NCBI GenBank assembly: GCA_050250375.1
Contig: JBFWOS010000002.1
Coordinates: forward strand, 453,149-517,148
Length of the DNA: 64,000 nt
Direction of reading: 5' to 3'
Source of the DNA: Candidatus Omnitrophota bacterium
GTDB taxonomy: Bacteria > Omnitrophota > Gorgyraeia > Zapsychrales > Zapsychraceae
Shown here piece by piece: positions 22,401 through 62,213 of the stretch (position 1 is its first letter; every line of letters begins with the position of its first letter). A program made the position numbers and the translations under genes. The notes under the pieces are model-generated. The model was not told the DNA's origin, did no database searches, and saw only the letters and a program-made list of their open reading frames with translations.

Positions 22401-25400
22401 TCGGGTGGCGATCGCTTCGATTTCGGCGTAAAGTTCTTTTTTGATCGCATCCATCGGGTCAACAAATTCGACAGTTTCTCCGGTCTTAATGTCCGGGTGA
22501 TTGCTGGCCGTGACTTTTCCGTTTTCATCCAGACGGACCAGAAAGTTGGACCAGGTGACGGCGCGCTGAACAGCCCCGCTGCGGTACCCGAGATCGTCCC
22601 CGCGGTTGTAGATTCGTCCTTCATCCGGATCGAGGTTAGCGCCGATGGTAATTCCTTTTATATCGGACTTGACCACATTGCCGTTGTTGATCACCAATGT
22701 GCCCAGCTTTTGTGTGCCGTCTTCGTTCAGGATTTCGATGGTCTCGTTGACCTGGGTCCGGGTGCTGGTCCGGATGACGGATCCATCGGTCTTTTTCAGG
22801 GTGATCTCGCGCAATTCACGGACGGTCAATAAATGTTTCAGCATCGCCTCCTTGGTGGAGCCCTTGACGCCGCCGAAGTTAACACTCATCCCGCTGACGG
22901 CGAGAATCCCTTTGGCGGCCAGTTTTGCCTCCATCCCTACAAAGGCGTTGTTGGAGCCTTCAATAATGATCAGCGGATCGCGTCCGGCGACATCGCCTTT
23001 ACCGCGCAGCAAGTCAATGGTTTTATCGTTGATCACCCCGCCCATCGCCGCCGGCACGAGCAGATCAATATCAACGATTTCCTTATTAAGGATATCCGTT
23101 CCGGCCAGATGCTCAACACCTATCCGTTCCGGCATCCATTGAAGGACGTTGCGGTCTCCCGGCTGGACATTGTTTAAATTTTGTAATTCTTCAAGGGTGA
23201 ACCCTTCGGGTTTGTAGACCGTCCCGTTGATGTCGGAAATGGCAACGACAATGTATCCCTCCCGGGCCAGTTTCAGGGCGATGGATCCGCCGACATCACC
23301 GGCCCCGATGACCGCCACTTTCAGTTTGGAAGGATCGAGCCCTTTGTAATTGATGATGGCCTGGATGCTGCTGAGGGTCGAATGTCCGGTCACGGCCAGG
23401 TCCACATGCGAGATCGCGCCGACACGGGCAGAACCGCCGGTCACCGCGCTGCCGATAATTTTCTGGATTTCGTCCGCCAGCTGTCCGGTGAACACTTTTT
23501 CCGGAATAAATAATCCGTTCTCGCGGCCGTTCGGTAAGGCCAGGATCAGCCGTTCGCGCATGCGTTCCATCAGGGAATCTTTAAGGAATAGGCTGCCGTT
23601 TTCGACCTCGATTTCTTTAAGGGCGCGTCCGTATTGGGCCAATGTCAGGCTGTAAAGGTCAACGCCGTGGGCCCGGAGCAGTTCGATTTCGTTTTTTAGA
23701 TGGTCCGTGTATCGTTTGATGATCCCGGCAATGATTGTTTCCTGGTTGGCGGAAGACATACCGACATCCGGGCCGCCGTCATAAACTTCCATCAGTCCGA
23801 CGTCGACCATGGCCGTCGCCCAGGCCTTGAGCAGGGTGTCCTTGAGCGGGAGCGCATCCTGGCTGACGCCGAAATAAGTCTTGGCCCCGGCGTAGCCGAT
23901 CCCGGCCAGGACATTTTTGGAATACTGCGAAACAGAGAGATTATTCAAATCGTTGTAAGCGCCTTTCATGATATCAAAGGCCACTTCATCCACATTGCGT
24001 TTGAGCGGATCATTGGCCCGGGCCACCGGCTCGGCGTAACGGATGCCGCCTTTGGTGTGGTCGGCCTTGCTGATGTCGACCAGCTGGGTGATCGCGTAAA
24101 AACGGTCTGGCAGATAAATAAAGATAATTTCTTTTTTGATTTCAATCCCGGTCATTTTGACGCCGTCGAAACGCAGCGCGATCGCCTCATTTTTTTCGCG
24201 CATGTTTATATCCGCGTTGGTCTGTTTGATCAGTTTGATCCCGCGTTCAAATAAAACCGTTAACCATCGGGTTTCGGCGCGTTCCAACATCCCCCGGATT
24301 TCTTTCTCCTTAACGTCCTGGTAAACAAAGCCGATCATGGCCCGCGCGATATCTGGATGGGCGACTAATTCTTTTCTGGCCTCAATGCTGTCGAACACCG
24401 GGCCCTTCCCCTGTTTGGATTCATAATGCGAAAGGATTTCCAGGAACTGCGTCGTTCCCAGCAGGATATCCCGCCGGGCCGCGGCGACATCCGGGATGGC
24501 CTGGTCCAGTCCGGAGCGGTTCATTTTTTGTTCGCGTTGGTCATGGATGTAACGGACAGCTTCGGGGTTTGTTTCCCGTTTTTTAGAGGCGGCCGCTTTA
24601 CCCAATCCCTGTTCTTCGATGGTTCCGGCTGTTTGTTCAGCCTCCGGCATTTGATCATCGGCGATCCCGATGCGTGAATAGAGGCTGGGTAATTGATGGC
24701 GCTGGAAGATCGACGGTGCTCCCTGCCGGACCTGCCGGTCATGGGCCTTTTCCGCGGCCACGGCCTGTCCGATGCTGATATCATAGGTCCCGCGTTTGGC
24801 GGATTCAAAACGGATATTCCCGTACCCGTCTTCGGTTTCCGACTCATTTTGTTCCTCAAGCCTTCCGAGCGCGTTAAAAATATAATGTTTGCCGTCCAGG
24901 GTAATCCCCAGGTCGCTGGCCACCACCAGGCGTTTGATGGCAATCTTCCGGGCCAGGTACGGCGGAAAGAAATAACCCTCGCGGTTCAGATGATCAATGA
25001 CATCGCTGATCACCTGGATAATATATGTGTCTTTAGAGTGTTCCAGCCGCTCTTTTTTGGCGGAGATCAGGTCGGCGATTTTTCTGGCGGCCTGGGCCGG
25101 TGTGAATCCCCGTCGGACGAGTTCCAGGACCATGGTGTTCATCCGGAAAGCGATCCCGGCAATATCGTTGTAAGCGGTCTCCTGGATTTCATCCAGAGGG
25201 TTAATAAACCTGACCGGCAATCCCGCCGGCAGTCCGGGATGATTGCTCTTGACGATGACATTGTCCTGGTTCTGGACGACCAGGTAATTTCCCCAGATAA
25301 CCGTGCGCTGGAGATTGGTCACCCGGTAATTTAAATCAATGCCGTGGCTGTGGACCCGTCCGGTGTTGATGTCAACCGACATGCCGACCACAAGATCCGG

Positions 25401-28400
25401 GATATTCGAACCGACCACGCGGCCGTTTTCGATGATCAGCTGGCCAGAGGCGGATTCACCGGTCAGGTCAACCTGTTCATTGATGACCGGGTTAGACTCA
25501 GCAACGATATCGGATTTCTCAGTCCTTAAAATGTAACGCTGTAATTGTTCAGAGGTAAAGCGGTGTTTGATAAAATCTTCTAGCCAGGACCCGTAGGCGC
25601 CGCCGAAACCGATGCTGGTGGACTTCAAAGCGAGTATGCCTTTTTCCGCGAGTTGTTTTTCAAACCCTTCAAATGAGTTAAAACCGGCTTCCAGATAAAT
25701 CAGCGGTTGACGTCCCGGCTGGTCGTTGTTCCCGCGCATTTTTGCGATATTGTTCGGGTTGACCGTCCGGCCCGGTGCGGCGGAAATAAAAATATCCAGG
25801 TCCACCTGGTCTTTGTCCAGGATCGCGCCGTTCGACAGATGCTGCACCCCGTTTTCTTCCGGCAGCCATTTCGTCACATTACGCTGGTTAATGTTGATGG
25901 ATTCCAGCCGCTGTAATTCAACGGTGCTGAAACCTTCCGGGTTGTAGACGGTGCCGTGGATGTCTTCAATCGCGACGACCTTGTAACCCAGGCGGGTCAG
26001 CATCAAGGCCAGCGAACCGCCGGTGGTCGCGCCTTTGATCCCGATTTTGGTCCCGTGTTTTTCCAGTTTCAAATAATCAATGATGGCCTCGACACTCATG
26101 GCCGTGCTGTACGCGGCCAGTGACCATTCTTTGAGGGAAATATCGTCTTCCTTTGTCAGCAGTCCGGTCGTTGCCGCGCCGATGGTGCGCGCGAGATCAT
26201 CTTTTAATTTTGAATTGAACAGTTTGACCAGGGATGTGCCGCCGTTCTGTCGTCCCAGCGGGGCGAGCGCCACCACCCGCTGGCGCAGGACATCGATCAG
26301 CGGTTCCTGTAAAAATTTTCCGCGGACGGTCCCCTGTTCCAGATCAGCCAGCAGACCGCCGTATTCCGTGGTGGTCAGGGAGCTGAGATTCTCGCCGACC
26401 TTGGATTTAATCATCTCCAGTTCATATTGCAGGTGCTGGAGGTAACGCTGGTTGATGGCTTCCGACAAGGTGTTTTGATCTTTCGCTGTCATGCCCGATT
26501 CGGTCCCGATCACGTAACGCGAAGCCAGCCCGGCATCGACCATCGCCGTCGCGAACCCCTTTAAATGTCTTGATTTGATATTGACCGCGTCCGGATGGAC
26601 CACCAGCACGGTTTTCGCCCCGGCGTACGGGGTCTGGGTGATCGTGTTGCGGTAATATTTGGAACGCGAGATCAGGTCGGTTTCCGTGTAGGCGTCTTTA
26701 AATATCTCAAACGCAGCCCGGTCGGATACGACAAATTTTCCGTGTTTGGTTCTTTCCTGCGGAATTTTGTACCTCAACCCGCCTTCCGCCAGATCACCCT
26801 TGCCGTCTTCATGGTCCACGATCTGGGTGATCGCGTAAAAATAACCGGCCTTATAAGTGAAGACGACCGCTTTCACCTGGGGGTCTTTGGTCAGGGATTC
26901 ACCATCAAAGACCACGGCCACCGGATCATCTTCTTGCCGGAGCACTGAATCAATGCTGGTTGACTTTATATTTTTAAATCCCAGTTCAAATAAAAGGCGC
27001 AGCCACAGCGTTTTGGTCTTTCCGATTTCAGCCAACACCTCGGCTTCAAGATTTTTGTCCGTCAGGTAACGGTTCAGGACAGCGGCGACCGCCGGGTTTT
27101 CCGCCAATTCTTTGCGGGCGGCGATGCCGTCGAACAATTTACCACCCTCCTTGTGCCCGAATATTTCTAGAAACTGGGTCGCGGCCAGTAAGACGTCGCG
27201 GCCGGCCGGAGTCACCAGGTCTTTTAATGCAGTGTCCAGACCGCTGCGGTTTTCCCTTTGATGACGGATATCGCTGATAAAAAGTTTTTCCGATTTGAAT
27301 TTATCGCCCGCCATATCCGGCGGACGTGAATCGTCTTCACCCAGCATCGCGAAATCCGGGGCATAGATCCGGGCGGCATCGGTGATGGAGATTTCCTGGC
27401 CGTCCTGCGTGCGGACCAGGAATTCATAACCGTCCTGGTGCGGGATGATTTGTAACAGGGCCAGGTTTGTCATTTCTTCGGTGTTGGCGCGCCGGATATC
27501 AATGCTCGTAAAAGGATGCATCTTACTTTTGTAAGCCTGGTAAAAATCATCCGGGAGCATATAAAGTCTTTTAGCCATTCCGGAAGCGGCCGGTTTGATC
27601 TCCGTCTGGATCACTTCCGGGCGCAGCGGATCAGCCACGATCTTGACGGACATCGCCTGCAGCATGGCCTGGCGGTTCACGAGCCACATGAATACCTCTT
27701 TAATAAAATCAAGTTCCACTTGCTGGGTCGGCAGTTTGTCTTTCGGGAATCCGAGAAAGGCCTGGGTGACTTCCTCTTTGTTCTTTAAAGTATAGGTCTG
27801 CACATCAAAATCACGGCTTAACGCGGCCAGGATTTCATAGATCAACTTTGGTTCGATCGGTGTATACCGTCTGGAATTATCGGACAACCAGAGGCTGAAC
27901 ATGCGGATGGGTTTTGGCGGATGACCAATATCATAAAATCCGGTAATACCGTTGTAATCAATATCCTTGTGGTTCGGGCTCAGGACCATGAGCATCTGTT
28001 CAATCGCTTCAATGTTCGCATGCAGTTCCCTGGCGGAGTATTCCCGGTCTTTGTCGATGCGGGACAGCATGGCCTGGTCCGCGGGCGTGACATTGATCCG
28101 TTCATTCGTCCGGTCGATGACGATTGAGAAATCTCCGTCACGGATGAACAATTCGGTGGCCTTGTCGTTCGTTTCATTTTTGATCCAGCCGAAGACCCGG
28201 TCATCCCCCCCGGCGGCCAGGATTTTACGCTGCAGGGTCCGGCGCGCGGACCGTCTTTGATCCGCCGTCCCGACCATGGCTTCATCCAGCAACGGTTCTT
28301 CCAGGACAACGATCCGGCGGATGATGGATGCGTCGAAGAAATGCCCGCCGACCGCGTGGATGGCGGTCGGTTTCATCCCGTCATTGAAGCGGTCAAAAAT

Positions 28401-31400
28401 TATTTCATTAGCGTCACCGAAAACATCTTCAATCAATAACCGTGATCCCCACAGCAACGCGACTTCAGAGGCTTCATCCGCGCGGTAAAAATCCGTGAGT
28501 TCGGCGAAAGAATTAAAATATCTTTTTGTGTACGGGCGTGACGGGTTCGCGTTGAACAGGTTAAACGGCAGGGCCAGTTCTTTGTTGTAAATCATATTTC
28601 TTAATTGGGGGTCCATCGGGCCGGCGGCTGTTTCAATCAGGTCGATGAACCGGCCCCAGTCAATCGAGTTGCCGATCAGATAAATCAGAGTCGCGAAAAA
28701 TCCGTTCGGGTAGTCCAGTTCCAGGCTGTCAACCGGCGCGTTCAGCCAGATCGTGGTGGTGCCGGCTCTGGGTGAAATGGTCAGGTGCTGGCGCAAACGG
28801 TTTGAGCGCTGCGCGAAAAACTGGATCAGGTTGTTTGAATCGTACGGCCGGCCGAAACGGTTTAAGGCCTCGACCATCATGAGGACCATCTGTTCGTCCA
28901 GTTCGGGAGAAATTCCTTTCTTTTTAACAAACTCGTCCCAATTATCCAAAAGCCGTTTCAGGTCCAGCGTATCACCCAGGGCAAAGGCCACAAACGACGG
29001 GTTCACGTGTAATAACCGGCCCAAATACCGGGTGTAATCACCCAGCATTGCTCCGTCGGCGCTGACGAATTCGACCGCGCCCAGCCCGATCGGGATATCT
29101 TCCACTTCATATTGGGCTTTGGAAAACGTGATGAAATAGACGTCTTTGGTCAGGCCGGCGGGTGTCAATAATGTCCCGCGGTTGCCTTCTCCTTTAGAAA
29201 TTATGATATCTGCCTTGTCCCAGGCCCGGACAAAATCCGGGGTGGCCCGGCGCAGGTCGGTCCCTCTGGTCTTGGACCCGCTTGAAATGACCCTGATCTG
29301 TCCGCTCGTTGCGTGTTTCCCAAAATATTGTTTGACTTCATCCAGGTACAATAAGGTCTTAATGTCATCGGCGGTGACATCGTTGTCCGCTTCCACGGCC
29401 TTTCCGACCAGGGTCACGGAGTGCCCGCCTTTGAGGATGAACAGGATCAAAGGCAGGTCATAAATATATTCAATGATGTTGTCAAAGAGATAAACCACAT
29501 TCTTCGGTTCCTTCTCCATCAATTCGGCGACCAGCCGGGACGTATCCCGCTGATGATACAAGATATCTTCATTCAGGTAGGACTGGATATATTCTTCAAG
29601 CGAACGCGGGTCGCCTTCCAGGATCCGTCGACGGAATTCGGTTGAGCTGGTGATGTTCCCCTTAAGAGCGAGTTCGACCGCGCGTAATCCCCTTTCATAC
29701 CCCCCGCGGCTTTGCTCGACATAGGCCTGCAGTTGCGGCAGGAATTCCAGGGCGATATCGAGGGCCTTGGTTTTATAATTCGACATCGGTTCACGCACGT
29801 TCGCCAATTCTTTAATATAGTCGTAGCCGACCTCTTCGATTTCACGCAGGGTCAGCTGGTTCAGACTCTCCCGGGACAGGAAGTTGTCCAGCATTTGGCG
29901 CGCGTTGCCGGCCGGTCTTTTTCCATGCCTGAGCGCGATTTCAAGATAACCCCTTAGATGTTCCTGGACCCTCTTGCGCACCATCGGATCGCCGTATAAA
30001 CGGCGGCCGGGAAGGTAATCACCGGGTTCCTGGACAAAGATCGGGCTGACCGGGTCCGTCCGCAGGAACGCTCGCAAAAATCCGTCATCGTTGTCCGTGG
30101 TGGTATCGGCTTCCATCGCCTGGTCGGCATGAATGATCACCCGGGCCTCGTCTAATAAACGCGTTCGGTCCAGGTAGGTCCGGCCGATCTTTTTTCCATC
30201 CACCTTGACCGAGACCCTCTTGGGGTCGCGTTTGCCGATGTTGAGCAGTCCCTGGACGGTTGTGCCGGGTTCGACAAAATAAACCCGCGCCTCTTTTCGT
30301 TCGTTGGTGATATTGATTTTAAATTTTGTTTTATGGCGGATGTCTTCTTTAATTAACGCAACGACGCGTGTTAACTGCCGGGCGGCCGCGGCATCCGGTG
30401 TCTCTGCGGAAAGGAGCCGGATGGATGTCTGAATTCGTTTCGCGGCGCGGATGAGTCCCGGTTCCACGTGCGCCAGGTCAAAATATTCCTGGTTGAGTTC
30501 CGTTAACAGGTCACGCGCTGAGATGTATTCACCTTCTTTAATTAATAATCCGATGCCTTCGATCCGCTGGGTGATGTCGTCGTCGCGGAATTCCAGGAAC
30601 AGGCTGGTCGCGCTGACCTTCAGGTGAGCGGCGATCCGGTCGATGTCTTTTAAGCGTTTGTCCAGCTGGGCAATGACGCCCTGCAGGTGGGCCTCGGCCC
30701 GTTTAAAATCGTCAGCCTCAATGAGCGTGATCACCGGAGCCAGGTCAATGGTGGCAAAGATTTTAGGGACGACAAATCCCCTGCCTGTCCACTGCTGAAG
30801 TTCACGCAGTTTTTCGATCATCACTTCCCTGTTATGCTGGGACAGGGGTGTTTTGCGTCCGCGTTCTTTGCGCTGGTCGGCTTCTTTTAATTTCTTCGCG
30901 TAATAGGTCAGGTCCGTTTTGTTTTTCAATACGACCATGTACTGCGCCAGTTCCGAAGCGATCTTTTTGACCTGGCCGTCAAACGCCTTGCGCAGTCCCC
31001 GGTACGGCACGTCGCTCCAGACCATCTGTTTGGGAAAATGGATATTCGCGGTCAGGCTTTCCACGCGTGATTTGATGTCGTCTTTGATCTCGCCCGCTTC
31101 CAGTTTTTGTCCCGGGGTCAGCCGGCTGATCACATCTTTTAAATCCTTCAGGTCCTGCGTGATATTTTTGTACCGTTCGAGTGTGACCAGATAATGCAGG
31201 CTGTACAGGCCGGTCAGTTCATCAATTTTTTCCAGCGCCTGGGCAATCTCGCCGCGGTTGGCTTGTAAACGGATCTGGTCAAGCCGGGTGTGCACATTGA
31301 TCGGCCGTTTCTGGCGGACCAGCACGGTCGGTTCATCCTGGCCGTCTTTTTCATCCACATCAATATCAAAAGTTCCGAGCCGGTAGGTCCTGACCCGGTT

Positions 31401-33950
31401 CCCGAGCCAGTCATTGGTCTCAAATGATTTTCGCAATTGTTGTCCGCGCAGCCGCTGGATGCGGTATTCCAGTTCGATCTCAAGGGCATTGGCGCTGTTG
31501 ATCGCACCTTCCAGCGCGTTTAACGCCGGCACCGGATGGCGGATGCCGTCGCGGGAGTTTCCGGTCAGGAGCATTCCGGCAACGAGGATTTGGACCTTGA
31601 TCAACAAGCGTTTGTTGCGGATCGAATCGAGATTCAGACGGCTTAGTTCCGCCTTATTTTTACGGATGTCCGCCAGTTCAATCATGCGCGACAATTTGCG
31701 GCGGTTGTCTTTTAATTCTTTGAGGGCCTGGCTGTAAAATTCGTAAGACTCACCGGAATGGATCTTCACCGGCATGTCGGAATAAAGATTTCTTAACTGG
31801 TTGACCAGCATCTGCTCGCGCAGTTCAACCGCCTGATATTGTTCCGGGGTAGACGCTTCACGGCGTTGGGCGATGATCTGTTCCAGTTCCCCGTACAGGA
31901 TGCCTAACTGCTGGCGGATCTCGATCGAGGCGCGGCGTTCGGTCTCGCGTTCATTCTCTTCGCGTTCCGGGACTTTCCCCCACGCGGGGACCCTGATCTC
32001 CAGCCGGTCTTCCGTTGACATCATGGCCTGGTCCGAGTGGTCGATATTCAGGCTGATCGCGGCCAGCAGGTTTGACAGGCGCATGTGGACCAGTTCCGCC
32101 AGTCCCACCCGCTTGAGCAAATCATTCCCGACGGCATCCGGCAGTTCCAGATAAAACCCGGTGAATTGCCGTTTGATGACGGTCAACTGCGGCGCCTGTT
32201 CAGCCGGCTGCGCGGTTGAATCCGCGCGGAAAAGCGGGACCGTTTTTAATTCCCCGGCAAGATGCTGCTGGATTTCCCGGATTGAATCGACATCCGCGTC
32301 CGCGGCCGGTTCGTCCGGATCGTGTTCCCAGAGCGTGATGACATCCGCGCTGACGGTTTGTCCCCGAGCGTTTAAAAATTCTCCGGATTTGAAGATGTCC
32401 GGTTTATAGGTTTCATCCGCGATGGTGATGCGGTCGATCATTTTTAAAATCCCGTTTAGAAGTGATTTCTTTTTGGCGGAGGATAATAAAGCAGAATCAC
32501 CGCCGGTGGGAAATAATTTTTGTCCGCCGTAAACGACCTCAATGTGGACTTCATTGGCCATGGAATACATGTTGAACTGGCCGAACTGGTCTTTGGTTTT
32601 ATTCCGCAGTTTCCCGGCGACCAGCGTCAGGATGATGTTAAACGCGGTGTCGTGCGGGAATTGGGCCAGCAGTTCACTCCGGAAAAAGACTTTGATATTC
32701 TTGGCCGGGTCCTCTGAGGCGATCTTTCTGGCCGCCTCAATGTGAAATTCCAGATCATCTTCGTTGACGAAAATGGCCTGGTCCGCGCTCTGCAGTCCGG
32801 CATAAGTTGAGACCGTTTTAAATTCTCTGGTCGCGGCGGCTTTCTGTAGGGCGTCGGTCAAGCCGGTCTCGAGTTTTTTCTCCGACAGCTGGGCCATGTC
32901 CACCCCGCCCGAAAAGTACCGGCGAGGAATCGTCTCGTGGCTGACCGCGTCAATATCTTCTTTAATGTAATCAAACACGCCGCGTTTGAAGGCCGCGATG
33001 TACTGGTTATAAATTTTTTCCTTGATATCTTTTTCCGCGAGGTCAACCCCGCTGATCTTGTTCTGGTCGACATAAATCCGGCCGAGCACGCTCTCTTTCA
33101 GGTTCTTCTTGTACCACGCGGCGAGGATCAGGGAATGGAACATCTGGCGCAGCGGGGCGAAATTTTTTCCTTCATTGATTTCCCGTTCGATTTCCGGGAT
33201 CAGGACCTCCCGGACAATATCACTGTTAACGCCGGTGCGGATCGTTTCATCCGTTGCGGCCGGCGCGTCCATGGCGGAATGGTGTTCCAAAGCGAGGTAA
33301 TCTTCTTCCAGCATGACTTTAAGGTGGCTGTCGGAAACAAAGACATGGTTGTCGTTGACAAAGACTTTGGCCCGTTCCGGCACAATCCAAATTTTATTAA
33401 AGGTGTTGAGCGGGATATCGGTGGTCCCGAATTGGCTCTGTGCTTTGCGGTAGACACGGTCCCAGAATTTTTTTCCCAGTTCGTCTTCCGGATAAAGCAT
33501 TGAGGCGCTGAGCTGTTTTAACAGGTAATCCTGCGCGAGCATGTCCCGGCCCATCGCGGTCTGGCTGAGCGGCTGGGCGATGATGCGGTCTTTTTCATAA
33601 GGCGAAAGGTTGACCCACATCTGGTCTTCCGGCACGGTCAGCGCGGCAAAGAAATAATTGATCAGTTTTTGGGATTCAGTCCTGAAGGCCTCTCCGGCCA
33701 GGCGGTCATCCCCGGTATCAATGAGGAAATCCACGTTTAAAGGATCGGCTGTGTCAATGCGCATCCCCGTGATAATCGCGGGGGTAAAGACGGCGCTGGT
33801 CTGGACCATCAGCCCGGGCTGGGGCAAAAGCACCATCTGGGCATAGGCCAGCTGCGGGGCGATCATGTTCAGGCAGAAACACACGATCACGGACCAGATC
33901 ACGCACCGGCGGCTTAAACGTTCAAGAGTTTGTTTGAATGGTTTACTCAT
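19485..33950 (-). CDS. Giant secreted multidomain protein (4821 aa): signal peptide, shared N-terminal module, DUF89-like domain, two ~900-aa tandem units each carrying a Glu/Leu/Phe/Val-dehydrogenase-like domain, and a shared C-terminal module
   Basis: A single uninterrupted ORF with an ATG start, a signal peptide ending ...LAYAQ and no internal stops over 14.4 kb. The domain calls rest on motifs: PYAGAKTV versus GGAKGG, NAD-binding [36 protein letters not shown], and the DUF89-like SKGEGNRG. Confidence 0.85.
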   Translation of the reverse strand: [4821 protein letters not shown]

Positions 33951-42562: not shown

Positions 42563-42700
42563 TTAACGCGCCAGGGTGAGTTTGGGGGCGGCGGGGATTT
42601 TTTCGTTTGGTCCGGCATGGCCCAGGATAAACGGCATTAAAGGAACGGGTTTGAAGTCGATGATGACCTCAAGAGTCAGACCTCTTCGACTTTTCCCAAG
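42563..42700 (-). pseudogene. Orphan 3'-terminal fragment of a giant-protein gene. It encodes only the shared C-terminal module (...[36 protein letters not shown]).
   Basis: 42563-42662 is about 90% identical at the nucleotide level to the last ~100 nt (43041-43140) of the 2429-aa gene. The protein motif PVIIDIRPV -> EVIIDFKPV is retained further upstream, but there is no N-terminal body. Confidence 0.6.
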
Positions 42701-43001
42701 TGGAATATAAAAGGGCTGGAAAAAAAGCCATTTGTTCTTCACGAAAAGACTCCTGAATAAATCTTTCATTCAGTTTCTTAAGTAATTCTTCTTTCGTTAA
42801 ATCAGGATGGCGGCGTTTTATTTCTCCGGAGACGCGCGAACGCGCCAGATCATGCAGTTCAAATGCCAACTGGATTCTTTGGTAGGGTTTAAGCCGGCGC
42901 AGGTATTGACGCTGCTGAGTGCTTGATTCGTGTCTATCCATAAATACCTCTACGTGTTTAACTGATAAACCTATAATACTGTCTTTTTCTGTTTTAGACA
43001 A
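42669..43001 (-). CDS. Hypothetical small charged protein (110 aa)
   Basis: An ATG-start ORF lying between the 2429-aa gene and the orphan fragment, and overlapping the fragment in another frame. No family recognised. Confidence 0.35.
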   Translation of the reverse strand: MSKTEKDSIIGLSVKHVEVFMDRHESSTQQRQYLRRLKPYQRIQLAFELHDLARSRVSGEIKRRHPDLTKEELLKKLNERFIQESFREEQMAFFPALLYSTWEKSKRSDS

Positions 43002-43040
43002 GACTGAAAAAATATTCCAGGTTTTATTTTAAATGAATAA

Positions 43041-46000
43041 CTATCGCGCCAGGGTAAGTTTGGGGGCGGCGGGGGTTTCTTCGTTTGGTCCGGCATGGCC
43101 CAGGATAAACGGCAGGTACAGGACGGGGCGGATGTCGATGATGACCGGGAAGTATCCGCCGATGTGCATGAGTTCCAGCGGCTGTTCCTGGATGGGCAGC
43201 GGGATGCCGAAGTCATCACGTTTGATCTGTAAATCCAGCCAGCGCGGGTTTAAGTCGATCCCCCCCACGGACTTGATCGTCTGTTCTTCGGCGGACATCA
43301 TGTGGTCCTTTTTGGGATCGGACGTCCGGACGTGGGCCAGGACTTCCGGGTTGAGGACATTTTCCGGGATCTTGCCGTCAATCAGGCGCCTGAGGTTCAG
43401 CATGGCGCGCGCGATCTTGAATTGCCTGACCTTCCAGACGGCGGCGGCCGTGTGGCCGGACAGTTTGACATTGGTGAGCTGTTCCCCCTCATCGTTGACA
43501 AACCGGCGCTGGCTTTCCCCTTCGTCGTTTAAGACGTCCAGCCGGATCTGAACGCCGGGGTGTTCGATGGCGTAATGGATCAGCGCGTTTTCATCCACCT
43601 GGAATTTGCTCGCGTTGATCAGGACGCGCACCGGGCCTTCTGCGTCCAGACCGAATTGCTGCAGGGCCTCTTCGTTCACCCATTCGACATTGCGCTGTTT
43701 GGAGGAATCGTCCAGGGTGGTGACAATATTACTGCGCCGGAAGAAATCCATTTTGTCGGCGTAGGCCGGCGCTTTCATGCCGGGCCCGTACACCTTGCGG
43801 CGGTTGTCGGCGATCTGGCTGAACGCGTCATGTTTGGCCTCCAGGTCGCGGGTGTCCATGCTTTCGGTATCAATCAGGAGATTAACGCCGAAGGCCAGCG
43901 CCCGTTTCGCCAGGGCTGTCCCGATGCGCCGGATGCCGTGCACGCCGAACGTCTGACGGGCGAGGCCCGTCTGAAGGACGTTGCTATCCTTAATAAAAAT
44001 CTGGTCCGCGTCAATCACGACCCCTTTGACCTTTTCCTTGTCCCGCAGGCTTTTGTAGGCCTTGTCCGACGGTGTTTTCAGGATATAATCGGACGACCGC
44101 ACCAGTTCCGATTCCTCCACGAGTTTTAAATTGATCGAGATCCCTTTGATCTCGGAGTTTTTTATGATCGTCTGGATCAGGTCCTGGATCCGCCGGCGTG
44201 TGGATTCGCTCAGTTGTTCATATTCTTTGCGCAACACATAAATGGTGGCGGCCTGGTGGATGACGGCGGTTTCCAGCAGGTTGACCCCGGCGGTCTGCAG
44301 TCCCAGGATCCCGATCGTGGTGTGGATGCCGGCTTCGTCGTTCTGCCCGATCTGGTCGTGGTAAACGGTTGAATCGGGCGACACGCCGGTCTTGGCGTAT
44401 TTTCCGGAGCGGCCGAATTCAAACATCTCGTCCAGTTTCAGGGCTTTTTTGAGCAGCATGTACCACATGATGTGGGCCGCGTTGAGGCGTTCTTCGTTTG
44501 TCTTGGGCTTGACGCCCGAGAGTTTGACCGAGCCGGGTGTTTGTTCGAAGGAGACAAGCTGTCCGTAAACGCCGTCTAACGCCAGGGCGATATTCTGTTC
44601 GGCCACGGCGATGGTCGTCGGGCCGGGCGCGGTCGTGACCACGGTCTGGTGGCGGGTCGCCGCGTCCAGGTCGATATTGTGTTCGGCCGTGGCAAATAAG
44701 ACCAGGCCTTTCAGGTCGGCCTTTTCAAAGAAGGCGTCGTCAAAGCGGGTGTTGCAGTAACCCACGCAGAAGTCGTAGTCTTTCTGCGAGACGATCTGTC
44801 CGACGTTCGGGTCAATCCCGGCGATCAGACGCCCGTCTTTCTCAACGACCTCGGACTCGCTGCCGATGATGTCAAAATTGATATCGGAGAAATTGTCGCG
44901 CAGGGCCTCGATCATGTCCGGGTTGAGCGGTTCGACGACAAGAACGTTTGTCTTCCCCCTCTGCGAGGTCATCCGTTTAAATTTGAGTCCGGCCAGGGTG
45001 ACGTCGGTTTCTTTGTGGTACAGCACGTGGCCGTTTAAGATATTATGCGGGACCTGGAAGTTCATCAGCCGTTCCAGATTGTCCAGGGCGCGCTGAACTT
45101 TAAGCCGGCGGACCTGCGGAACGGCGGCGGCGGTGTGGCCGGCCACTTTGATATTGGGCAGCGGATTGTTCGACGCGTCCCTGAAGCGCTGGTGGGCGTC
45201 GCCTTTTTCTTCCTGGTTCACCACGTCCAGGCGGACTTCGACGTCCGGACGGTCCCGTAAATAATGCAGCAAGGCCTCTTCATCGATCAGGTTTTTGACC
45301 TGGCTGACAATGGCGCGCACGTCGCCCTTGGCGGACACGCCGAATTGTTCCAGTTTTTCGGCGTCAATCCACGATTCCGTTTCCGTGGTTAAAGGTGTTA
45401 AGGTCGTAATGATATTGCTCTGCTGCATGAAATGATCAAGGTCAACAAAAACGGCCCTTTGCTGTTCCGGGCCAGCGTCCCGCAGCATGAAAAATGACAG
45501 GCTGTTGAGGAAGTCGATTTTTTCCGTATACATCGGACGGGTGGATTCCCTTTGGTTGATCAGGGCGGTCGCGCGCAGGGCGATCACCCGCTGGGCCACG
45601 GCCTTTCCGATGCGTCCCAGCCCCTGTATCCCGACTTTCAAACCGGCCAACGAAAGTGAAAGCGTGGCCGGGTCTTTGATAAAAATGGTCTGCGGGTCGA
45701 CGTCGATCGGGTGCGCGTCCAGGAAATCACTTAAAGTCCTGTTCTGCCGGGCGGCCGGGGTGGCGATGGTGTAATCGGACACTTCCACCAGCACTTCTTT
45801 GGGCAGCGGTTTGATGGAGATTTTCATATCGTATTTACGTTTATTTTCTTCCATCGTTTTGATGAGGGATTGAAACCGCTCTTTGGCGGTTTCGTCCAGA
45901 TTTTTGTATTCATCTTCATCAACATAAATGGTGGATAATTCATGGGTGATGGCCATCTCGATGAGCCGTTCACCGACGGAATCAAGGCCCAGGATCCCCA

Positions 46001-49000
46001 GGCTGGTGTGGATGTCGGCCTCTTTGTTCTGCCCGAGCTGGTCGTGGTAGACGGTGGCCTGCGCGCCCACACCCGTGCGCACGTAACGTCCCTTGGTGGC
46101 GAAGGTGAACATTTCATTGAGTTTGAGCGACTGCTGCAGGAGCCGGTACCAGATGATCTGCGCTTGGGCATCGGGGTCCGCGCCGGTTTCCCGGACCAGA
46201 TCCGTCATGCGGCCGGTGGCCAATGTTTCTTCGGACAAGACCTTGCCCGCGTAAATGGAATCCAGCATCAGGCCGATATTTTGTTCCGCGACGGCCACGG
46301 TGGTCGGGCCCGGGGCGTTGGTCACAACGATGTCGTTGCGGCTGGCCGCGTCCAGGTCGATGTTATGAACGCCGGTGGAAAACAGGATCAGTCCCTTAAT
46401 TTCGGATGTGTCAAAGAATTCTTGGTCAAAGGTCTCGTTCACGTACCCGAGGACATAGTCGTAATGTTTGGCCTTGACCAGATCTTTGAGTTTGCCGCGC
46501 ACGCCGGGGATCCAGTTGGCCGTGTCGTCTTCGACAATCTCGGAGTCCGGCTGGATGATGTCGAAGTCCACATTCCCCATCTTTTTATGCAGCATGGAAA
46601 TGATGTCCGGGCCGATGGGTTCAACAACAAGAATGCGCGCCCGCGGATTGGGGACTTTTAAGACCAGGAATTTGAGGCCGTGCATGGTTGTCTCTGTGAC
46701 TTCGAGTTTCGGCCCGCTGACCATCCGATCAATTGTGTCATCGGTGTGCGGGATCCCCATCGAGGTCAAGACCTTGGCGATCCGGTGGCTGGACAGGCGG
46801 TACTGGTTCGGATAAGGAAAAATGTCCGGCAGCTGATTGGTGTCCATGCGCCATTTTACGGAATTCCAGAAATCCGGCTGAAACAAATCGCCGTGGATTC
46901 TTGTAAATTCTTTCTGGAATATTAACGGGATTTTCAGTTCCGCGAACAGTAAACCCGGATACACCCGGAAACGGTTTTTGCTGTCTTCCCTGGCCGGCAG
47001 TGTGACGACCGGCGGCTGGACCTTGCGGTAACTGGGGGCTGTGCGGAATTCTGTTTCTTCAATGCGGCCCAGGCCGGCATTGTTCATATAAACGACCCGG
47101 CCCCAGGACGTGATCCCGAAATGCCTCAGCGACATGTCTAAAGGGAAAATCCCCATCGACGCCAAATGTTTGATGTTCCAGCCGATTTTAATCAGGATAT
47201 CCAGCTGGGCGGCCGCATCGCTCTGGGCCCAAATGTCGGCAACCGGCGTGATATGCCGCTGCGCGAACATATTGATAAATGTGATGTGCGTTTCATCCAC
47301 AAAAATATCGGCGCCGGCCTCGCGTTTGAGCAGATCGACCAGTTCCGGGTCTACCATCGAAATGGGAAAACGCACATTCGAATACGCCCAGGAATCCAGC
47401 AGCTGCCCGTGCCGGTTTGATTTATGGATATCGCGGTAGGTATCCACGATATGCCCCCGGTTGGGTGCGTTATCCCTGATCACTTTAATGACGATGGGTG
47501 ATCCGGGTACCGCCATGGTGATCGACTGGTCCCCGTCCCCCAGATATTGAAGCCTGTTTCCGCTTTGTTCCATTTGTTCGTACAGTTCACCGAGATAGAT
47601 TTGCTGGGAACGCTGCGTGAGCCCGACTAGGTCGTAAATCTGCGCGAGGCTGACTTCCGGGAAAATGTCGGCGATGAAACGGATGACCTCCGGAAAATCC
47701 GGCGCGTTGATCATGAACGACGAACGGGTCGAGGACAGCAAAAGGTTTTTTGAGGTTAAATAATCGGTGACGACCGCGTCGATGACGACGCCGTTGTTCG
47801 GGTGTTTCAGCGCGATGATCAGCGGCACCGGTTTGTCATTGGTCAGAAAACGGCCGACCACGTACGCGGCCTTGTTGCGGTAAAACAGGGGTTTAAGGAC
47901 TTCAATCCCTTTGATCTCGACGTCCGCAGGCAGATGGGACAGCTGTTCCTCCAGCATCGCCGCGGTGATTTCGATATCCGTATCAGGGGTTTCGTACAAA
48001 TCCCGCAGGTCAAAGTCGTTGAGGATGGCCTGCACCGTCTCGCGCAGCGCCTGCGGTCCCTGGTACGGGTGCTGATGAATGACCTTGTCCGCAGGTGTCC
48101 GGATCCCGGAAACGGGTGTTGTCTTGTAATCTTTACGTAAAGGAAAATATGTCAGCCGGCTCATGACGGAATCCAGGAAACTTAACAGCAGGTCCTGTTT
48201 GTAATAGTCCTCCTGCGTTTCATAGTTGTGGCGAAGCATTGTGCGGATTTCGTCCCAGATGTGGACGTCGTCGATATATTCGCCCAGGATCATGCCGATG
48301 ATCTGGGTGGTCTGGTTGCTGATGCTTTCCTGCATTTCAAGCCGCATCTGTGAATAAATCAGGTTGCCGCGCCAGTCTTTATCACGGAAGAAAATCCGGG
48401 CCTTGTCCGTGGTCCGTTTAAAATGCAGGTAATATTCTTCAAAGCTGTGCTGGAATTCCGTGACGGCGGCGTTGAGGGTGGTCTCGTACGGTCCGGCCCG
48501 GTAATCCAGGATTGTTTTTTTGCTGTAATCGGCGCGATGGCGCAGGATAAATTTAAACATCTGTTGGCGCTGGTCATCGGTCAGATCATTCTGCGCGCTT
48601 AAGGAAGATTGGTTCCAGTCGCTGGGCGTGATGGTGTTGTACGCGCCGAACACAAAATGGACATGTTCGGTTTTATCCGGATTGTCGATGAACCATTCCA
48701 TTTCCCGGGCGAGTTCGTCGCGTTGCGGATGCGAAAACAAGTCGCGCGGCACCAGGACAAAGACCGGTTTGTCTTCGGTCGCGCGGGACGTGACGGCTTC
48801 CAGCAGTTTTTCGGCCGGGACATTGTCTTCCGTAAAAAATTCCTGGAAGCTCTCCTGCCAGGTGGACAGGCCGGAGACGGCGGCCAGCGCGGGATAACTG
48901 TGCTGCCAGGTGTCGAACCCGAGCAGGTACCCCCCTTCATATCCGGACAGCGGGATCCGGTCGATGAAATCATAAACGGTCATGGCTTTTTGGCGGATCA

Positions 49001-50330
49001 TCTCAAATCCGTCAAGATTGGTCCCGTAGAATTCGTTTCTCAAATTCCGCAACTCTTCCGTTAGGTTCACCGGATGCAGGATTTTGATTTGTTTCCTCGC
49101 GATCATCTGGCGCAGGGTGTCGTCTGATAAAGGTGCTGCCTCGTCTTCGCCGGACAACATGGCGGTGTCCGCGTTGGCCCCGATGTCGTATAAATCGGCG
49201 GTGACCTTAAAGAGCCGGGTATTCTGCGCGGAGTAATCATTAAGCATGGCCTGGTCCCCGGGGGTCAATGCGGCCGGGTCGCCGGTCAGGACGCGTAAAT
49301 TCCGCTGCTGGACGGGAAGCAGCCCGCCGGAAAAATATTGCCGGGGTAACACCTTGTGACTGACCGGGTCGACGTCTTCTCGGATAAAATTATACACCCC
49401 CACTGTAAAGGCCTTCATATACTGCTCATAGATTTTAGCGTTGAGCGTTTCATCCGCCGAGTCAATGCCCCGGATTTTATTGCGGTTCACATACGTCTGG
49501 GCCAGCAGGCTTTTTTTCAGCGTCATTTTATACCAGGTGGCAAGGATCATGGCGTGATACATCTGGCGCAGCGGGGCAAATGTCTTGCCGTTGTTCACTT
49601 CCTTTTCAATTTCCGGGATGATGTGTTCCCGGATCAGGCCGGTCAAACGCTGGTCGTCTTTGACGGCTGATTCATCCGTCGGCCGGGCGGCATCCAGGTA
49701 ATCCTTTTCCAGCATGACGGTCAGGTGGCTTTGGATCACGTAAGCGCCCTGGGTGTGTTCGTACACCACCGCGTTGTCCGGAACGATCCAGATTTTATGC
49801 AGGAAATCATTAATATCCATTTCCGGCGCATTGGTCTCTTTCAGCGCTTTGGACCAGAAGGTCCGGCCGGGCTCCTGGTCGGGATGCAGGAGCGACGCCG
49901 TTAATTGTTTCAATAAATAGTCCTGGCTTAACAAATCCCGCCCCATCCCGGTCCGGCCCAGCCCTTCGGCCACCATCCGGTTTTGTTCGTGGGGTGATAA
50001 ATTGACCCACATTTCATCTTCGGGGACGGTTAAGGACGCTAAAAAATATTTGATCAGCCGGGCGGATTCATCCTGGAATTCGGCGCGGCCGTAGGGGTCG
50101 CCGCCGGCCTTGATCATAAAATCAAAACGCAAAGGGTGTTCGGGGTTAAGGATGATGCCGGTCAGCAGGGCGGGTGTGTAATTTTCCGTCGGTGTGATCA
50201 GGGTTCCGGGCACGGGCAGGTGGCTGGTCTGGGCAAGAAGTACAGACGGCGCCGCGAGTTGTATTAAGAAGACAAACGCGGTGGCGCAAACCAGGGCTTT
50301 AAATCCGAATTGTCGCGAAGAACGTGCCAT
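43041..50330 (-). CDS. Giant secreted multidomain protein (2429 aa): signal peptide, shared N-terminal module, full-length AceK-like isocitrate dehydrogenase kinase/phosphatase homolog, two tandem D-isomer-specific 2-hydroxyacid-dehydrogenase-like units, and the shared C-terminal module
   Basis: An ATG start with signal peptide ...SVLLAQ. The AceK-like segments include [16 protein letters not shown]..., [21 protein letters not shown] and [10 protein letters not shown]. The 2-Hacid_dh motifs are [33 protein letters not shown] and GHTAAAV, each present twice. Confidence 0.85.
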   Translation of the reverse strand: [2429 protein letters not shown]

Positions 50331-57213: not shown

Positions 57214-60200
57214 TTAAGGGGTATAGGCGCTTAAGGTTAAAATGCCCGTGTCGTCTTCCTTAATATACGGGGATTGGCTGCGGATGGAGATTTCCGGATT
57301 GTCCTCATCCTGCGCCGGATCGGCGATTCCCAGCAGGAGCGGGAGATTATTCACGGGGATGATCTGGAAGATCACCGGGGCAAAACCGTCCAGGGGCATG
57401 GATTCCAGTTCCCGCAAAATGAGCGGATCCAGCGGAACGGTCATGTTGATCCCCTTCCCTCTTTTTTCGATAATCAAATCGGCCGGGTTAAGATCGATCC
57501 CCCCGACCCTTTCGCTGGTGGCGGTTGGAGTCACATCTTCCGCTACGATTTGCGGCGGGATATCCGTTGCGGCGACGACCGCCGGCGTTTCGATGTCTGT
57601 GACCGGCGATACAGTAGTTCCGGCCGGCAATTCAGTCCCTCTCAAATCGTTCTGGTATTTCGTGTACAGGGTCGGCAAATCCGTTTCAAAATTAAAGCGG
57701 TAACTGCTGCGCATGCGGACATCGTCATCGGGATCTTCCTGAACGTTCCAGACGCTGGCGCCGATGGCTTTATAAAAATTCTGCTGGCGGGTGACCGCCG
57801 GTCTATTCCAGAAATTATAGGACCACCAGGCGGATGTCACATTCCCCTGGGTTTTTTCGGCGATGTTGGTAAATGTCCGGTGGAGCAGCCAGCTGGCGGC
57901 CTGTGTTCCCTGGAATTCCGGGGCAACCACAAAATCACTCATGTAAACGGCATTGCCGTTGCCGTTATATTGGACGATGGCATAACCGACCGGTTCATTG
58001 TTCGTATCCAGCAGGACAAAACTGTAATCATCCATATTGCTGCGGTTTTCGATGGGGTTTAAACGGAAGCGCATGATCTGCCCGTTTAAAACCCGGTATT
58101 TCTGGTTGCTCAACAGCATTTCTTTGGTCAGCGGCGCGATGCGGATTTGCTGATTATTAATCGTCTGGACATCGGCCAGGACCGCGTTGTCGCTTTGCCC
58201 TAAAGCCGTCTGGTCCAGTCCGGCGATTGCCTGGTTTAAGTCGTTGCTCAGGTCCTCCATGCTTTCATAATTTTCATTCGGATTGGCGAACAGGGCCTTT
58301 TCAACGATCGCCCAGATACTGGCCGGCATGTCATTCTGAGGTGTCCCGTCAAAAGTCGTTGTTCCTCTGAATTCCGCGGGATTAACCGGCGCGAGGGTCA
58401 TGGTCTCTTTATTCAGCATTGCATCGTTAATCGTGGCCCTGGCCCGGGAAAATGTATTGAGCAGGATTTCTCCGATGACGATCATATCCCGGTACTTGAT
58501 GCCGGCCTGCAGAGACCTGACGTCGGTCTTGTCGAGGTCCATTTTTAAGGTGTCCCAATCGATCAGGCGCGGACGGCCGGTTGTTTCATCAATGATAATA
58601 TTTTCCGTATGGAGATCCCCGTGAAACGCCCCGTACGTCGTGGAGATGTAAGCGATTTCCCGGGCGACCTCCGCCAGAATCCTTAATCGTTCCCCCCGGT
58701 CAGTGACGGCATCAAAATGGGTGCCGCGGATGAATTGCATTTCGATCATATTCGGTTGCAGCGAAATATTGTCTTCCAGATTGGCGTTGGGCATGGCGAC
58801 GAATTGTTTGACCCGTTCGTCATTACGGACGGCCAGAAAGAATTCAAGCAGGCTGATTTTATCCATTGAGATAATATTGTCTAACAAAAACTGGCTGAAA
58901 AATTTGATGGCCAGCGGTTCGCTTTCCGTCCCGTCCGCCCTGATCTCCACGCCACGGAATACCGGCTTGAGCAGGTCCGCGGCAATAATTTCCTCCAGCC
59001 GGTAATCTTTTCCTTTAACCCGGATGACCACCGGGCGCCGGTCAACGATGACCTGTTTTAATTCGTCCAGCAGCTGCTGGGAGCGGTCCCCGAAGAAATC
59101 ATCCACATTGATCTCGACCTGTTCACCGGTTGATGCCAGGACAGCATTGTCGGATGTGGCCAGACGCACGCCGGCCTCAAAAAACGGCAGGGCGTTCGCC
59201 GCGTCGTACTGCTGAACAACAATCTGCTGACTGAGCGCGGTATCGTTGGTGATCTCAACCGTTGTCCGGGTGCCGGTCACTCCGTCCTCTTCGGTTGCCT
59301 GACGCGCGGCCGGGCTGACGGCCCGCCCGTTCAGGTCCGATAAAACCGTCGGAGCTGAATCAATGTACACCCGCAAAAGGCTCTGGTATTGTCTGAGGAA
59401 TTCATTCCGTTGCCGGTTGTCCCGGCTGACGTCTGCCAGCCGCTGGCGGACCTGTTCGAGAAAACGCGCGATCGGCGCCTCAATCGGACGGGTTTCACCC
59501 GGGGTGTCTCCGGTTAAATCACTGATCAGTGTCTGCAGCGCGCCTGTCAGGAAACTGTAATTCCGGCGCTGGAATTCCCTGAATTCTTCTTCGACAAAAC
59601 GTTCGGACACGCCTAATGTGTCGGGATCAACGCGGGATGAATCCTGGTTGACGATGCCGGAACGCAGACCGCCGGTCACCGGGTCAACCCCGCTTTCCAC
59701 CATGAACGTGACGCCTTTGGGCTGAACAGGCCGGGTCAATTCACGGACGACCCGCAGATTGTTATTATCGAGCGACCCGAACTGCAGTTCCATCCCACCG
59801 GAAAAATATTTACGCGGGATCAGTTCCTGGGAGACGGGATCAAATTCTTCCTTGATGTAATTGTAGACGCCGACCTTGAACGCCTCGAGGTATTGATCGT
59901 AAATTTTCTGTTTGATTTCCTTGTCAGCCACATCAACCCCGCCGGTCTTGCTCTGGTCCAGGTAAATCCGTCCCAGCAGGCTCTCTTTCAGGTTGCGTTT
60001 GAACCAGGTCGCCAGGATCATGGAATGGTAGACCTGGCGCAGGGTGGCGAAATGTTTGCCTTCGTTGACTTCTTTTTCGATGGCCGGGATCAGGATCTCC
60101 CGGATGATCTCGGCCGTCACGGTCCTTTGTTCCCGCGTCTGTTCATCGGTAGCGGCTTCGGATTGTTTGAGATTTTTATTCTGGTCGAATTCGGTGTGGG

Positions 60201-60891
60201 CGATGTAATCCTGTTCCAGCATGACCTTCAGTTTGCTTTCGACCACAAAGGCCGTGTCGCCGTTTTCATAAACCACCGCGTTGTCCGGGACGATCCAGAC
60301 TTTGATGAACGTATCCAGCTGGAGTTCGGCGGAACCGTATTTCCGGACGATTTTCTGCCGGACATCGTTCCAGAAATGTTCCCCCAGCTTATCTTCCGGG
60401 TACATCATGGAGGCCGTCAATTGTTTGAGCACATAGTCCTGGGCCAGCAGGTCGCGCCCCATTTCCGTGACGCCGAATTTGTCCGGGATGATCCGCTGTT
60501 TTTCAAAAGGCGACAAATTGACCCACAGGTCTTTTTCCGGAATGGTTAATGAGGCCAGAAAATATTTGATGAGCCGGTTGGACTCTTCATACAAAAAGGA
60601 ATCCACGGTCTTTTCATCCCCTGTTTCCAGGATAAAATCAAAACGCAGCGGATTGTTGGGATAAATGCGCAGTCCCTTGATCAGGGTCGGATTGTAGAGA
60701 TTGCTGGTCTTGACCATCTGTCCCGGGGTGGTCAGGTGGAGCGCAGACAACCATGGTTGCGGTCCCGGCCGTTCTTGCGCGTAAGTATATTGAGCCGGCA
60801 CAGTCAGGCCAAAACCGATCATGAAAATGATCAGCGCTGTTACCAGGCGTGAGCCTCTGGATGATTGCCGTTTTTGTAGCCACTGAAACAT
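57214..60891 (-). CDS. Giant secreted multidomain protein (1225 aa): signal peptide, shared N-terminal module, RIO/Kdo/APH-type protein-kinase-like domain, GNAT acetyltransferase-like domain, and the shared C-terminal module
   Basis: An ATG start with signal peptide ...QYTYAQ. The kinase catalytic-loop and metal-binding motifs are [14 protein letters not shown] and LIDWD. The GNAT motif is [17 protein letters not shown]. The C-terminal module is GGIDLNP...[17 protein letters not shown]. Confidence 0.85.
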   Translation of the reverse strand: [1225 protein letters not shown]

Positions 60892-62212: not shown

Positions 62213-62213
62213 G

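Follow-up and report, generated by a model that had tools for sequence, protein, structure and literature searches.

The C-terminal domain (CTD) of type IX secretion system (T9SS) substrates in Bacteroidota (Por_Secre_tail, TIGR04183/TIGR04131) is a module of ~60-100 aa that is placed strictly at the C-terminus of Sec-exported proteins with diverse cargo, occurs in tens of copies per genome within one phylum, and is not genetically linked to its machinery; the same lack of linkage holds for exosortase substrates. The element described here resembles it in these respects. It is a conserved tail of ~55-60 aa at the C-terminus of three giant proteins (4821, 2429 and 1225 aa, here giants 1, 2 and 3), all encoded on the minus strand of a 64,000-nucleotide stretch, referred to below as the window, from the genome of a Candidatus Omnitrophota bacterium (contig JBFWOS010000002.1, positions 453,149 to 517,148). 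Omnitrophota are widespread, ultra-small and probably predatory or episymbiotic bacteria that are known for proteins of record size. The tail differs from the T9SS CTD in fold, the latter forming a globular Ig-like beta-sandwich and the tail by prediction an extended, non-globular chain, and in that T9SS cargo lacks the common N-terminal head that accompanies the tail; the T9SS CTD models TIGR04183, TIGR04131 and PF18962 gave no match to it at E <= 10.

Several other systems bear comparison. The giant RTX adhesins of type I secretion systems (T1SS), LapA-like proteins with an N-terminal retention module, are also modular proteins of very large size that begin with a conserved module, and their unstructured, uncleaved signal of ~60 aa lies at the extreme C-terminus; by AlphaFold2 (AF2) prediction the Omnitrophota tail is likewise an unstructured terminal stretch of ~50-60 aa. 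T1SS substrates, however, have RTX nonapeptide repeats upstream of the signal and no Sec signal peptide, whereas the giants carry a predicted signal peptide and gave no Pfam match to HemolysinCabind/RTX repeats (GGxGxD); and T1SS signals are poorly conserved, whereas the tail is strongly conserved. MARTX and polymorphic toxins have conserved N- and C-terminal regions around variable, shuffled enzyme modules, short inter-module motifs as possible processing sites, and displaced orphan C-terminal fragments adjoining the gene, all of which have counterparts here, but the giants lack the glycine-rich MARTX repeats and the cysteine protease domain, and their cargo is of housekeeping type rather than recognisably toxic. 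PEP-CTERM, LPXTG and GlyGly-CTERM/rhombosortase signals are also C-terminal tags on signal-peptide proteins in multiple copies per genome, but they consist of a short motif, a transmembrane (TM) helix and a basic cluster, as against a long, extended, conserved tail with no TM helix and an acidic end. The dockerin of the cellulosomal dockerin-cohesin pair is another C-terminal module of ~60-70 aa borne by diverse enzymes, and the tail could similarly dock onto a receptor domain; in this case, though, there is no match to PF00404 at E <= 10 and no duplicated Ca-binding F-hand, and the candidate receptor (the head) is on the same polypeptide. Autotransporters (type V secretion) end in a beta-barrel of ~250-300 aa, as against a conserved tail of ~60 aa without a Pfam match. 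Beyond its T1SS-like terminal unstructured stretch the tail gave no sign of membership in a named C-terminal family in the tests that were made, yet it behaves like that general class.

Minus-strand translation of window positions 43097-43268, which end 18 codons upstream of the stop codon of open reading frame (ORF) 43041-50330 (giant 2), gives VGGIDLNPRWLDLQIKRDDFGIPLPIQEQPLELMHIGGYFPVIIDIRPVLYLPFILG. The homologous tails of the three giants share the core GG(I/V)D(L/F)N…PVIxxIxPVxxLxxxLG and have an acidic spacer after it. When the tails were compared in pairs by BLASTP they showed 34-43% identity over 68-85 residues (E = 2e-7, 3e-5 and 6e-8), and a six-frame scan of the window with a hidden Markov model (HMM) built from the three sequences found only the three giant tails at 108-116 bits, together with one partial copy at 42566-42769 (minus strand; E 4e-7), everything else lying at E > 4. 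The translations, the pairwise comparisons and the HMM scan agree on the conserved C-terminal module that the initial annotation had proposed for the three giants, and the coordinates given there were off by no more than a few codons.

Ten relatives came from a word-indexed search that used the three tails as queries, and with them the consensus could be refined to GGIDLNP..L.LQIKRD.NG.PLP...QPI....I.GF.PVIINITPVTNLPLLLG. The wider profile search recommended in the initial annotation was made exhaustively with HMMER, using a 19-sequence tail profile against 1.84 billion representatives of 50%-identity clusters, and returned at least 5,671 representatives at E <= 1e-3 (2,408 at E <= 1e-10), with scores up to 104 bits. 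A single copy of the tail, with the pattern GG(I/V)D(L/F)N...G.xP(V)I(I)xIxP...LLG and ending less than 80 aa from the C-terminus, was found in 3/3 giants and in 143/143 newly retrieved database proteins, in which the tail ends 1-79 residues (median 19) before the last residue. The strict C-terminal placement first noted on the giants therefore extends to all of these proteins, and since each has one terminal copy, the tail is not a module that turns up internally in many unrelated proteins. A genome scan restricted to one genome per species gave 247 confirmed tail sites, and 80 loci were retained. All 80 come from metagenome-assembled genomes labelled as Omnitrophota/Omnitrophica or Ca. Zapsychrus, or from auto-binned 'uncultured Planctomycetales' or 'bacterium' records; all are of Omnitrophota type, and the family is confined to Omnitrophota. 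Several genomes each contributed 3-5 tail loci. Chance similarity, low-complexity sequence or an artefact of assembly or annotation can be given practically no weight as an explanation, and is refuted by the thousands of tail homologues, by the assembly of giant 3, which is identical in an independent sequencing run, and by orthologues in the family that are conserved along their full length (83% and 66%).

Neither tail nor head gave a Pfam-A or NCBIfam match in the full-length giants, and seven isolated tails matched nothing in Pfam or NCBIfam even at E <= 10, with the models for PEP-CTERM (PF07589/TIGR02595; 0/7 tails), LPXTG and the T9SS CTD included. The same libraries detected the PEP-CTERM protein encoded at 4098-4745 (PF07589, 22.3 bits against a cut-off of 20.7), which served as a positive control. 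The initial annotation was accordingly right both in recognising that protein and in separating the tail from PEP-CTERM, LPXTG and T9SS CTD signals; nor did PDB sequences supply a named sorting domain, since tail and head profiles gave nothing there at E <= 1. That the tail is a diverged member of a named C-terminal family (PEP-CTERM/exosortase, LPXTG/sortase, GlyGly-CTERM, T9SS CTD, dockerin or autotransporter) is suggested by its position and by the presence of a PEP-CTERM protein in this genome, but is very improbable, given these blank searches, the acidic rather than basic end, the lack of a TM helix and a tail that is not predicted to be globular. Two preprints on Omnitrophota giant proteins discuss C39/S8 peptidase N-termini, dockerins, TM helices and signal peptides (bioRxiv 10.1101/2023.11.21.568195; 10.64898/2026.06.07.730766), and no description of the head/tail pair was found in the literature, these two included. 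Tail and head are unnamed families, without a match in Pfam, NCBIfam or PDB and undescribed in the literature found.

The secondary structure of the tail, whose prediction had been recommended in the initial annotation, is nearly absent by prediction: the AF2 model of the giant 2 tail alone, from a 48-sequence alignment, shows an extended chain in which hardly any strands or helices form (pLDDT 66.7, pTM 0.27), and Foldseek found no match to it. This model, which is of moderate confidence, and the blank Foldseek search speak against a globular CTD. The invariant residues are the Gly-Gly, an Asn, a Gly and two Pro, as expected for a peptide that gains its conformation on a partner. The motif is single and non-duplicated in the alignment. 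Its hydrophobic stretch (…PVIINITPVTNLPLLLG) is not a TM helix, because the best 19-aa window has a mean Kyte-Doolittle value of only 1.3-1.6 and contains 1-3 prolines as well as Asn, Asp or Arg. After LLLG comes a spacer (median 27 aa), a region that is net negative in 80% of 176 tails and in none of the 176 contains a hydrophobic run of 15 residues or more. Many tails end, after the acidic spacer, in (E/Q)-phi-S-x-L-(N/Q)-COOH, often …phi-S-x-L-N; examples of the terminal motif are KLTLAR (window 43044-43061) and …ISALN in three database proteins (P0001, P0002, P0131). This motif may be a separate recognition element, for instance for a PDZ-type protease.

The Gly-Gly and the terminal motif together raise another explanation, namely that the tail serves as a C-terminal pro-peptide or as a tag for quality control, and is removed after the Gly-Gly by a C39-type or a PDZ tail-specific protease reading …phi-S-x-L-N, for the sake of export competence or the timing of maturation. 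Double-glycine leaders are N-terminal peptides with a recognition helix upstream of the Gly-Gly, with which they end; in the Omnitrophota proteins the Gly-Gly instead opens a C-terminal tail, and conservation lies downstream of it. C39 peptidase domains are common in Omnitrophota giant proteins (bioRxiv 10.1101/2023.11.21.568195; 10.64898/2026.06.07.730766), but no peptidase is linked to the tail in the window or in the 80 loci, and we regard processing of this kind as distinctly improbable.

The initial annotation had also taken the giants to be otherwise unrelated proteins. This does not stand: they share an N-terminal region of 350-400 aa with 44-51% identity (BLASTP, E 1e-92 to 1e-107). 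It opens with a basic n-region, a hydrophobic core of 15-19 residues and a …(Y/L)A↓Q site, by inspection a Sec signal peptide, and in all complete members a basic n-region, a hydrophobic core and a cleavage-like …(Y/F/H)A↓Q site were judged by eye to be present. The ~330-aa head that follows the signal peptide ends in …PRxYFSGG. There are exactly three heads in the window, each on a tail-bearing protein. The head family numbers at least 1,275 among the 8,000 candidates listed, overwhelmingly labelled Omnitrophota, and the cargo annotated among these includes ribosomal protein S9, PGK, PGI, NUDIX, ankyrin and RecJ.

Head and tail are closely coupled. The head is present in 48 of the 54 tail-bearing database proteins of at least 1000 aa. 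In a genomic sample for which loci were chosen by the tail alone, 36 tail-bearing frames had a complete 5' end; signal peptide and head, found in 3/3 giants, were present directly in 30/36 of these genes, and the count rises to ~34/36 when frameshifts and gaps are allowed for. In four of the six exceptions (L012, L028, L034 and L069) the head lies immediately upstream, the same gene having been split by a frameshift or a run of N, and the other two are an orphan fragment (L051) and an ambiguous case (L005). 'Headless' tail proteins were rejected as proof of an independent tag, since they are mostly truncated fragments or genes broken by frameshifts or N runs. Because it nearly always comes with a signal peptide and head, the tail does not stand alone as a tag but forms one of the two ends of a scaffold. 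Head-cargo-tail is an Omnitrophota-specific architecture of which the tail is the C-terminal end-module, and its elements are, in order, a predicted Sec-type signal peptide, the ~330-aa head, one to many variable modules with short junction motifs between them (D-x-A-M-L here, A-S-S-P-V in other lineages), the tail and the acidic spacer.

It is tempting to ask whether the head is itself the partner of the tail, which would then act as a head ligand, either in cis (loop closure or auto-inhibition) or in trans, building chains or a surface coat that displays enzymes, in the manner of donor-strand or cohesin-dockerin assembly. Their co-occurrence, the extended tail with its beta-prone hydrophobic segment between prolines (PVIINITPV), and the failure to find a separate receptor gene in the 80 loci are all consistent with this. 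So is an AF2 model of one complete protein (P0105, 564 aa, 120-sequence alignment), in which the head is a helical bundle with long beta-hairpins, at pLDDT 84-97 over most of residues ~40-320. The same full-length model, however, places the tail without confidence (pLDDT 31-61, with only 10 alignment rows covering it). At its GGIDLN start the tail bears a weak resemblance to a GG(V/I)D segment of the head (alignment columns 293-314; giant 3 aa 311-332, LDQSKTGGVDVADKEIKQKIYD), but the idea of a domain swap, with the tail imitating part of the head, was rejected when profile-profile comparison with hhalign gave a non-significant probability of 1%. Moreover, complete proteins with a head and no tail exist (P0019, P0076, P0122 and P0124, some of which end in a hydrophobic helix), so the head functions without the tail. 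Head-tail docking is a serious possibility, if on the unlikely side.

Between head and tail the proteins differ. Paralogues share only their two ends: in a pair from locus L029 the heads are 55% and the tails 42% identical while the middles are unrelated, and between L003 and L015 the corresponding values are 68% and 52%. Between the window giants and each of the other retrieved proteins, similarity is likewise confined to the two ends, and no full-length orthologue of the giants was among the retrieved proteins. Giant 1 carries an ARMT1-like phosphatase, two Glu/Leu/Phe/Val dehydrogenases and modules without assignment; giant 2 carries AceK and two D-2-hydroxyacid dehydrogenases; and giant 3 combines a kinase-like domain with a GNAT acetyltransferase. 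When 30 complete head-and-tail proteins (L003-L076) were surveyed with Pfam, most of the cargo stayed unannotated, and the domains recognised were again of cytoplasmic type, namely response regulator, HEAT, UDPGP, PGM, ROK, Ser/Thr kinase, GGDEF and methyltransferase domains. Head-cargo-tail genes often stand as tandem pairs (L029, L034, L059) with near-identical signal peptides and heads and with cargo that is partly or wholly different, which suggests duplication followed by cassette exchange.

The modules of giant 1 are separated by a junction motif, D-x-[AS]-M(-L), of which there are 11 copies against 1.0 expected (0/1000 shuffles reached 11). The copies flank the recognisable enzyme modules and also occur just after the head and just before the tail, the pre-tail position being taken in other lineages by A-S-S-P-(V/I/L). 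The motif could be a processing site or a recombination joint.

These features invite comparison with effector delivery. Head and tail might be membrane-interacting translocation elements (compare the flanks of MARTX or the B-moieties of AB toxins) that carry enzymes into a host or prey cell, with the junctions as release sites. Cofactor-dependent enzymes of cytoplasmic type and signalling domains on signal-peptide proteins would then cease to be a paradox, because ATP, NAD and acetyl-CoA are present in a host or prey cell, and the enrichment of junction motifs around modules and the exchange of cargo between paralogues would be accounted for. Omnitrophota have been proposed to live as predators or episymbionts, and it has been suggested that their giant proteins are cleaved (bioRxiv 10.1101/2023.11.21.568195; 10.64898/2026.06.07.730766). 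A Foldseek search with the head ranked ClyA-family pore-forming toxins at the top, none of them significant (prob <= 0.08). Delivery of effectors into another cell seems to us rather unlikely. The positions of these features in the window are collected in Table 1.

Table 1. Positions of the giant genes, their end-modules and their junction motifs in the window
Feature	Position	Strand	Description
Giant 1	19485..33950	-	4821 aa: signal peptide, head, ~13 modules, D-x-A-M junctions, tail
Giant 1 predicted Sec signal peptide and head	32904..33950	-	Signal peptide aa 1-37 (...LAYA↓Q); head aa 38-349, ending YFSGG
Giant 1 junction motifs	aa 640, 1276, 1632, 1889, 1958, 2199, 3947, 4108, 4292, 4609, 4711	-	
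Giant 1 DEAMT junction motif	19806-19820	-	5 residues upstream of tail core
Giant 1 tail core (aa 4720-4773)	19632..19793	-	Tail HMM 116 bits
Giant 1 post-tail spacer	19488..19631	-	48 aa, Pro/Ser/acidic-rich
Giant 2	43041..50330	-	2429 aa: signal peptide, head, AceK kinase/phosphatase, 2x D-2-hydroxyacid dehydrogenase, tail
Giant 2 predicted signal peptide and head	49323..50330	-	Signal peptide aa 1-33; head aa 34-336
Giant 2 junction motifs	aa 359, 388	-	
Giant 2 tail core (aa 2356-2411)	43098..43265	-	GGIDLNPRWLDLQIKRDDFGIPLPIQEQPLELMHIGGYFPVIIDIRPVLYLPFILG; tail HMM 114 bits
Giant 2 post-tail spacer and terminal motif	43044..43097	-	HAGPNEETPAAPKLTLAR
Orphan tail fragment	42564..42668	-	105-nt direct repeat, 87% identity, of giant 2 3' end (43042-43146)
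Giant 3	57214..60891	-	1225 aa: signal peptide, head, kinase-like domain, GNAT acetyltransferase, tail
Giant 3 predicted signal peptide and head	59794..60891	-	Signal peptide ~aa 1-38 (...YTYA↓Q); head to aa 366
Giant 3 tail core (aa 1130-1188)	57328..57504	-	Tail HMM 108 bits
Giant 3 post-tail acidic spacer	57217..57327	-	37 aa

The partial tail found by the HMM scan downstream of giant 2 is the orphan fragment that the initial annotation had counted with the family. The fragment is real, but it is not an independent fourth member, because it is a local duplication: the 105-nt repeat corresponds to the last ~35 codons of the giant 2 gene and its end coincides with the stop codon. The two copies of the repeat enclose a 110-aa ORF (42669-43001, minus strand) with an Rv0078B-like antitoxin domain, and the arrangement looks like an insertion that left an orphan tail behind. 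Comparable orphan tail fragments were seen at loci L051 and L012.

The genes around the giants are largely of housekeeping type (ValRS, citramalate/isopropylmalate synthase-like, aspartokinase, phosphoglycerate mutase, threonine synthase-like, homoserine dehydrogenase and GpsA), and the window also encodes a sensor kinase, TPR, Sel1 and MORN-repeat proteins and a TetR regulator. The initial annotation had proposed a search for co-occurring sortase, exosortase or secretion-system genes; the window encodes none of these, T9SS machinery included, and none was linked to the tail in the 80 related loci, where ORF clustering revealed no recurring partner gene. The two largest clusters proved to consist of antisense shadow ORFs opposite the sequences that code for head and tail, and the remainder are due to gene order shared by close relatives (menaquinone genes, response regulators, an MBOAT). 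Such long antisense frames, for example at window 43033-43551 (plus strand), L024 and L049, arise as artefacts where the other strand carries conserved coding sequence, and could be miscalled as genes. MORN_2-repeat proteins adjoin two of the giants, one (41522-42469, minus strand, with a signal-peptide-like N-terminus) immediately downstream of giant 2 and the other (61049-62257, minus strand) upstream of giant 3. Immediately upstream of giant 2, in divergent orientation, is a gene (50502-51614, plus strand) whose product combines an N-terminal DUF1016 domain with a staphylococcal-nuclease-like one.

The explanation that we favour, tentatively and at a little short of an even chance, is that a phylum-specific component of the envelope reads the tail, after Sec export, as a linear signal for sorting or docking. 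According to this scheme the head-cargo-tail protein would first be exported by Sec; a conserved, phylum-specific envelope component would then read the tail in extended conformation; and this recognition would fix the location of the protein, either across or onto the outer membrane or within a surface assembly. We infer the use and cleavage of the signal peptide, the recognition of the tail by a receptor and the final location alike. The logic of the tail would resemble that of the T9SS CTD or of the T1SS C-terminal signal, with homology to neither. A conserved, strictly C-terminal, single-copy module that is found in one phylum and in multiple copies per genome is typical of a sorting tag, and to this extent the sorting-tag interpretation put forward in the initial annotation is borne out; its view of the cargo as otherwise unrelated is not, and sorting itself is deduced from the pattern. 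The absence of linked machinery fits a sorting signal, as T9SS and exosortase substrates are also unlinked.

Several observations weigh against this explanation. Neither a receptor nor machinery was identified in the window or in the 80 loci, and since head and tail are almost always paired, the partner of the tail could just as well be the head. Cofactor-dependent cargo (NAD(P)- and ATP-dependent enzymes and GNAT, as well as response regulators, PGM, UDPGP and GGDEF) is odd for periplasmic or extracellular proteins, and the signal peptides were assigned by eye rather than with a dedicated predictor. The confidence of the AF2 tail model is moderate, and the tail may form a small fold in context. 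Finally, the sequence of the tail is much more highly conserved than are unstructured signals of the T1SS type.

A broader proposal is that the proteins represent an undescribed, phylum-wide, two-ended delivery or assembly system, in which a head of novel fold and an extended tail would bracket interchangeable enzymes of cytoplasmic type, with the junctions as processing sites; the products would be exported and then either polymerise head to tail on the surface or be translocated into host or prey as secreted polyproteins. We think this unlikely, but if it were true it would explain how ultra-small, host-dependent bacteria deploy giant multi-enzyme proteins.

The tail probably belongs to a system for protein sorting or docking that has not been described before, and it bears on the standing question of how the giant proteins of Omnitrophota are targeted and what role they have. 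Two very large unnamed modules have been defined, and at the least both head and tail merit curated family models. If the tail is indeed a sorting or docking signal, it would point to envelope machinery specific to the phylum, and would sharpen the paradox, already noted in the literature, of ATP- and NAD-dependent enzymes outside the cytoplasm; it would also provide a sequence handle with which the exported or surface "effectorome" of any Omnitrophota genome could be listed.

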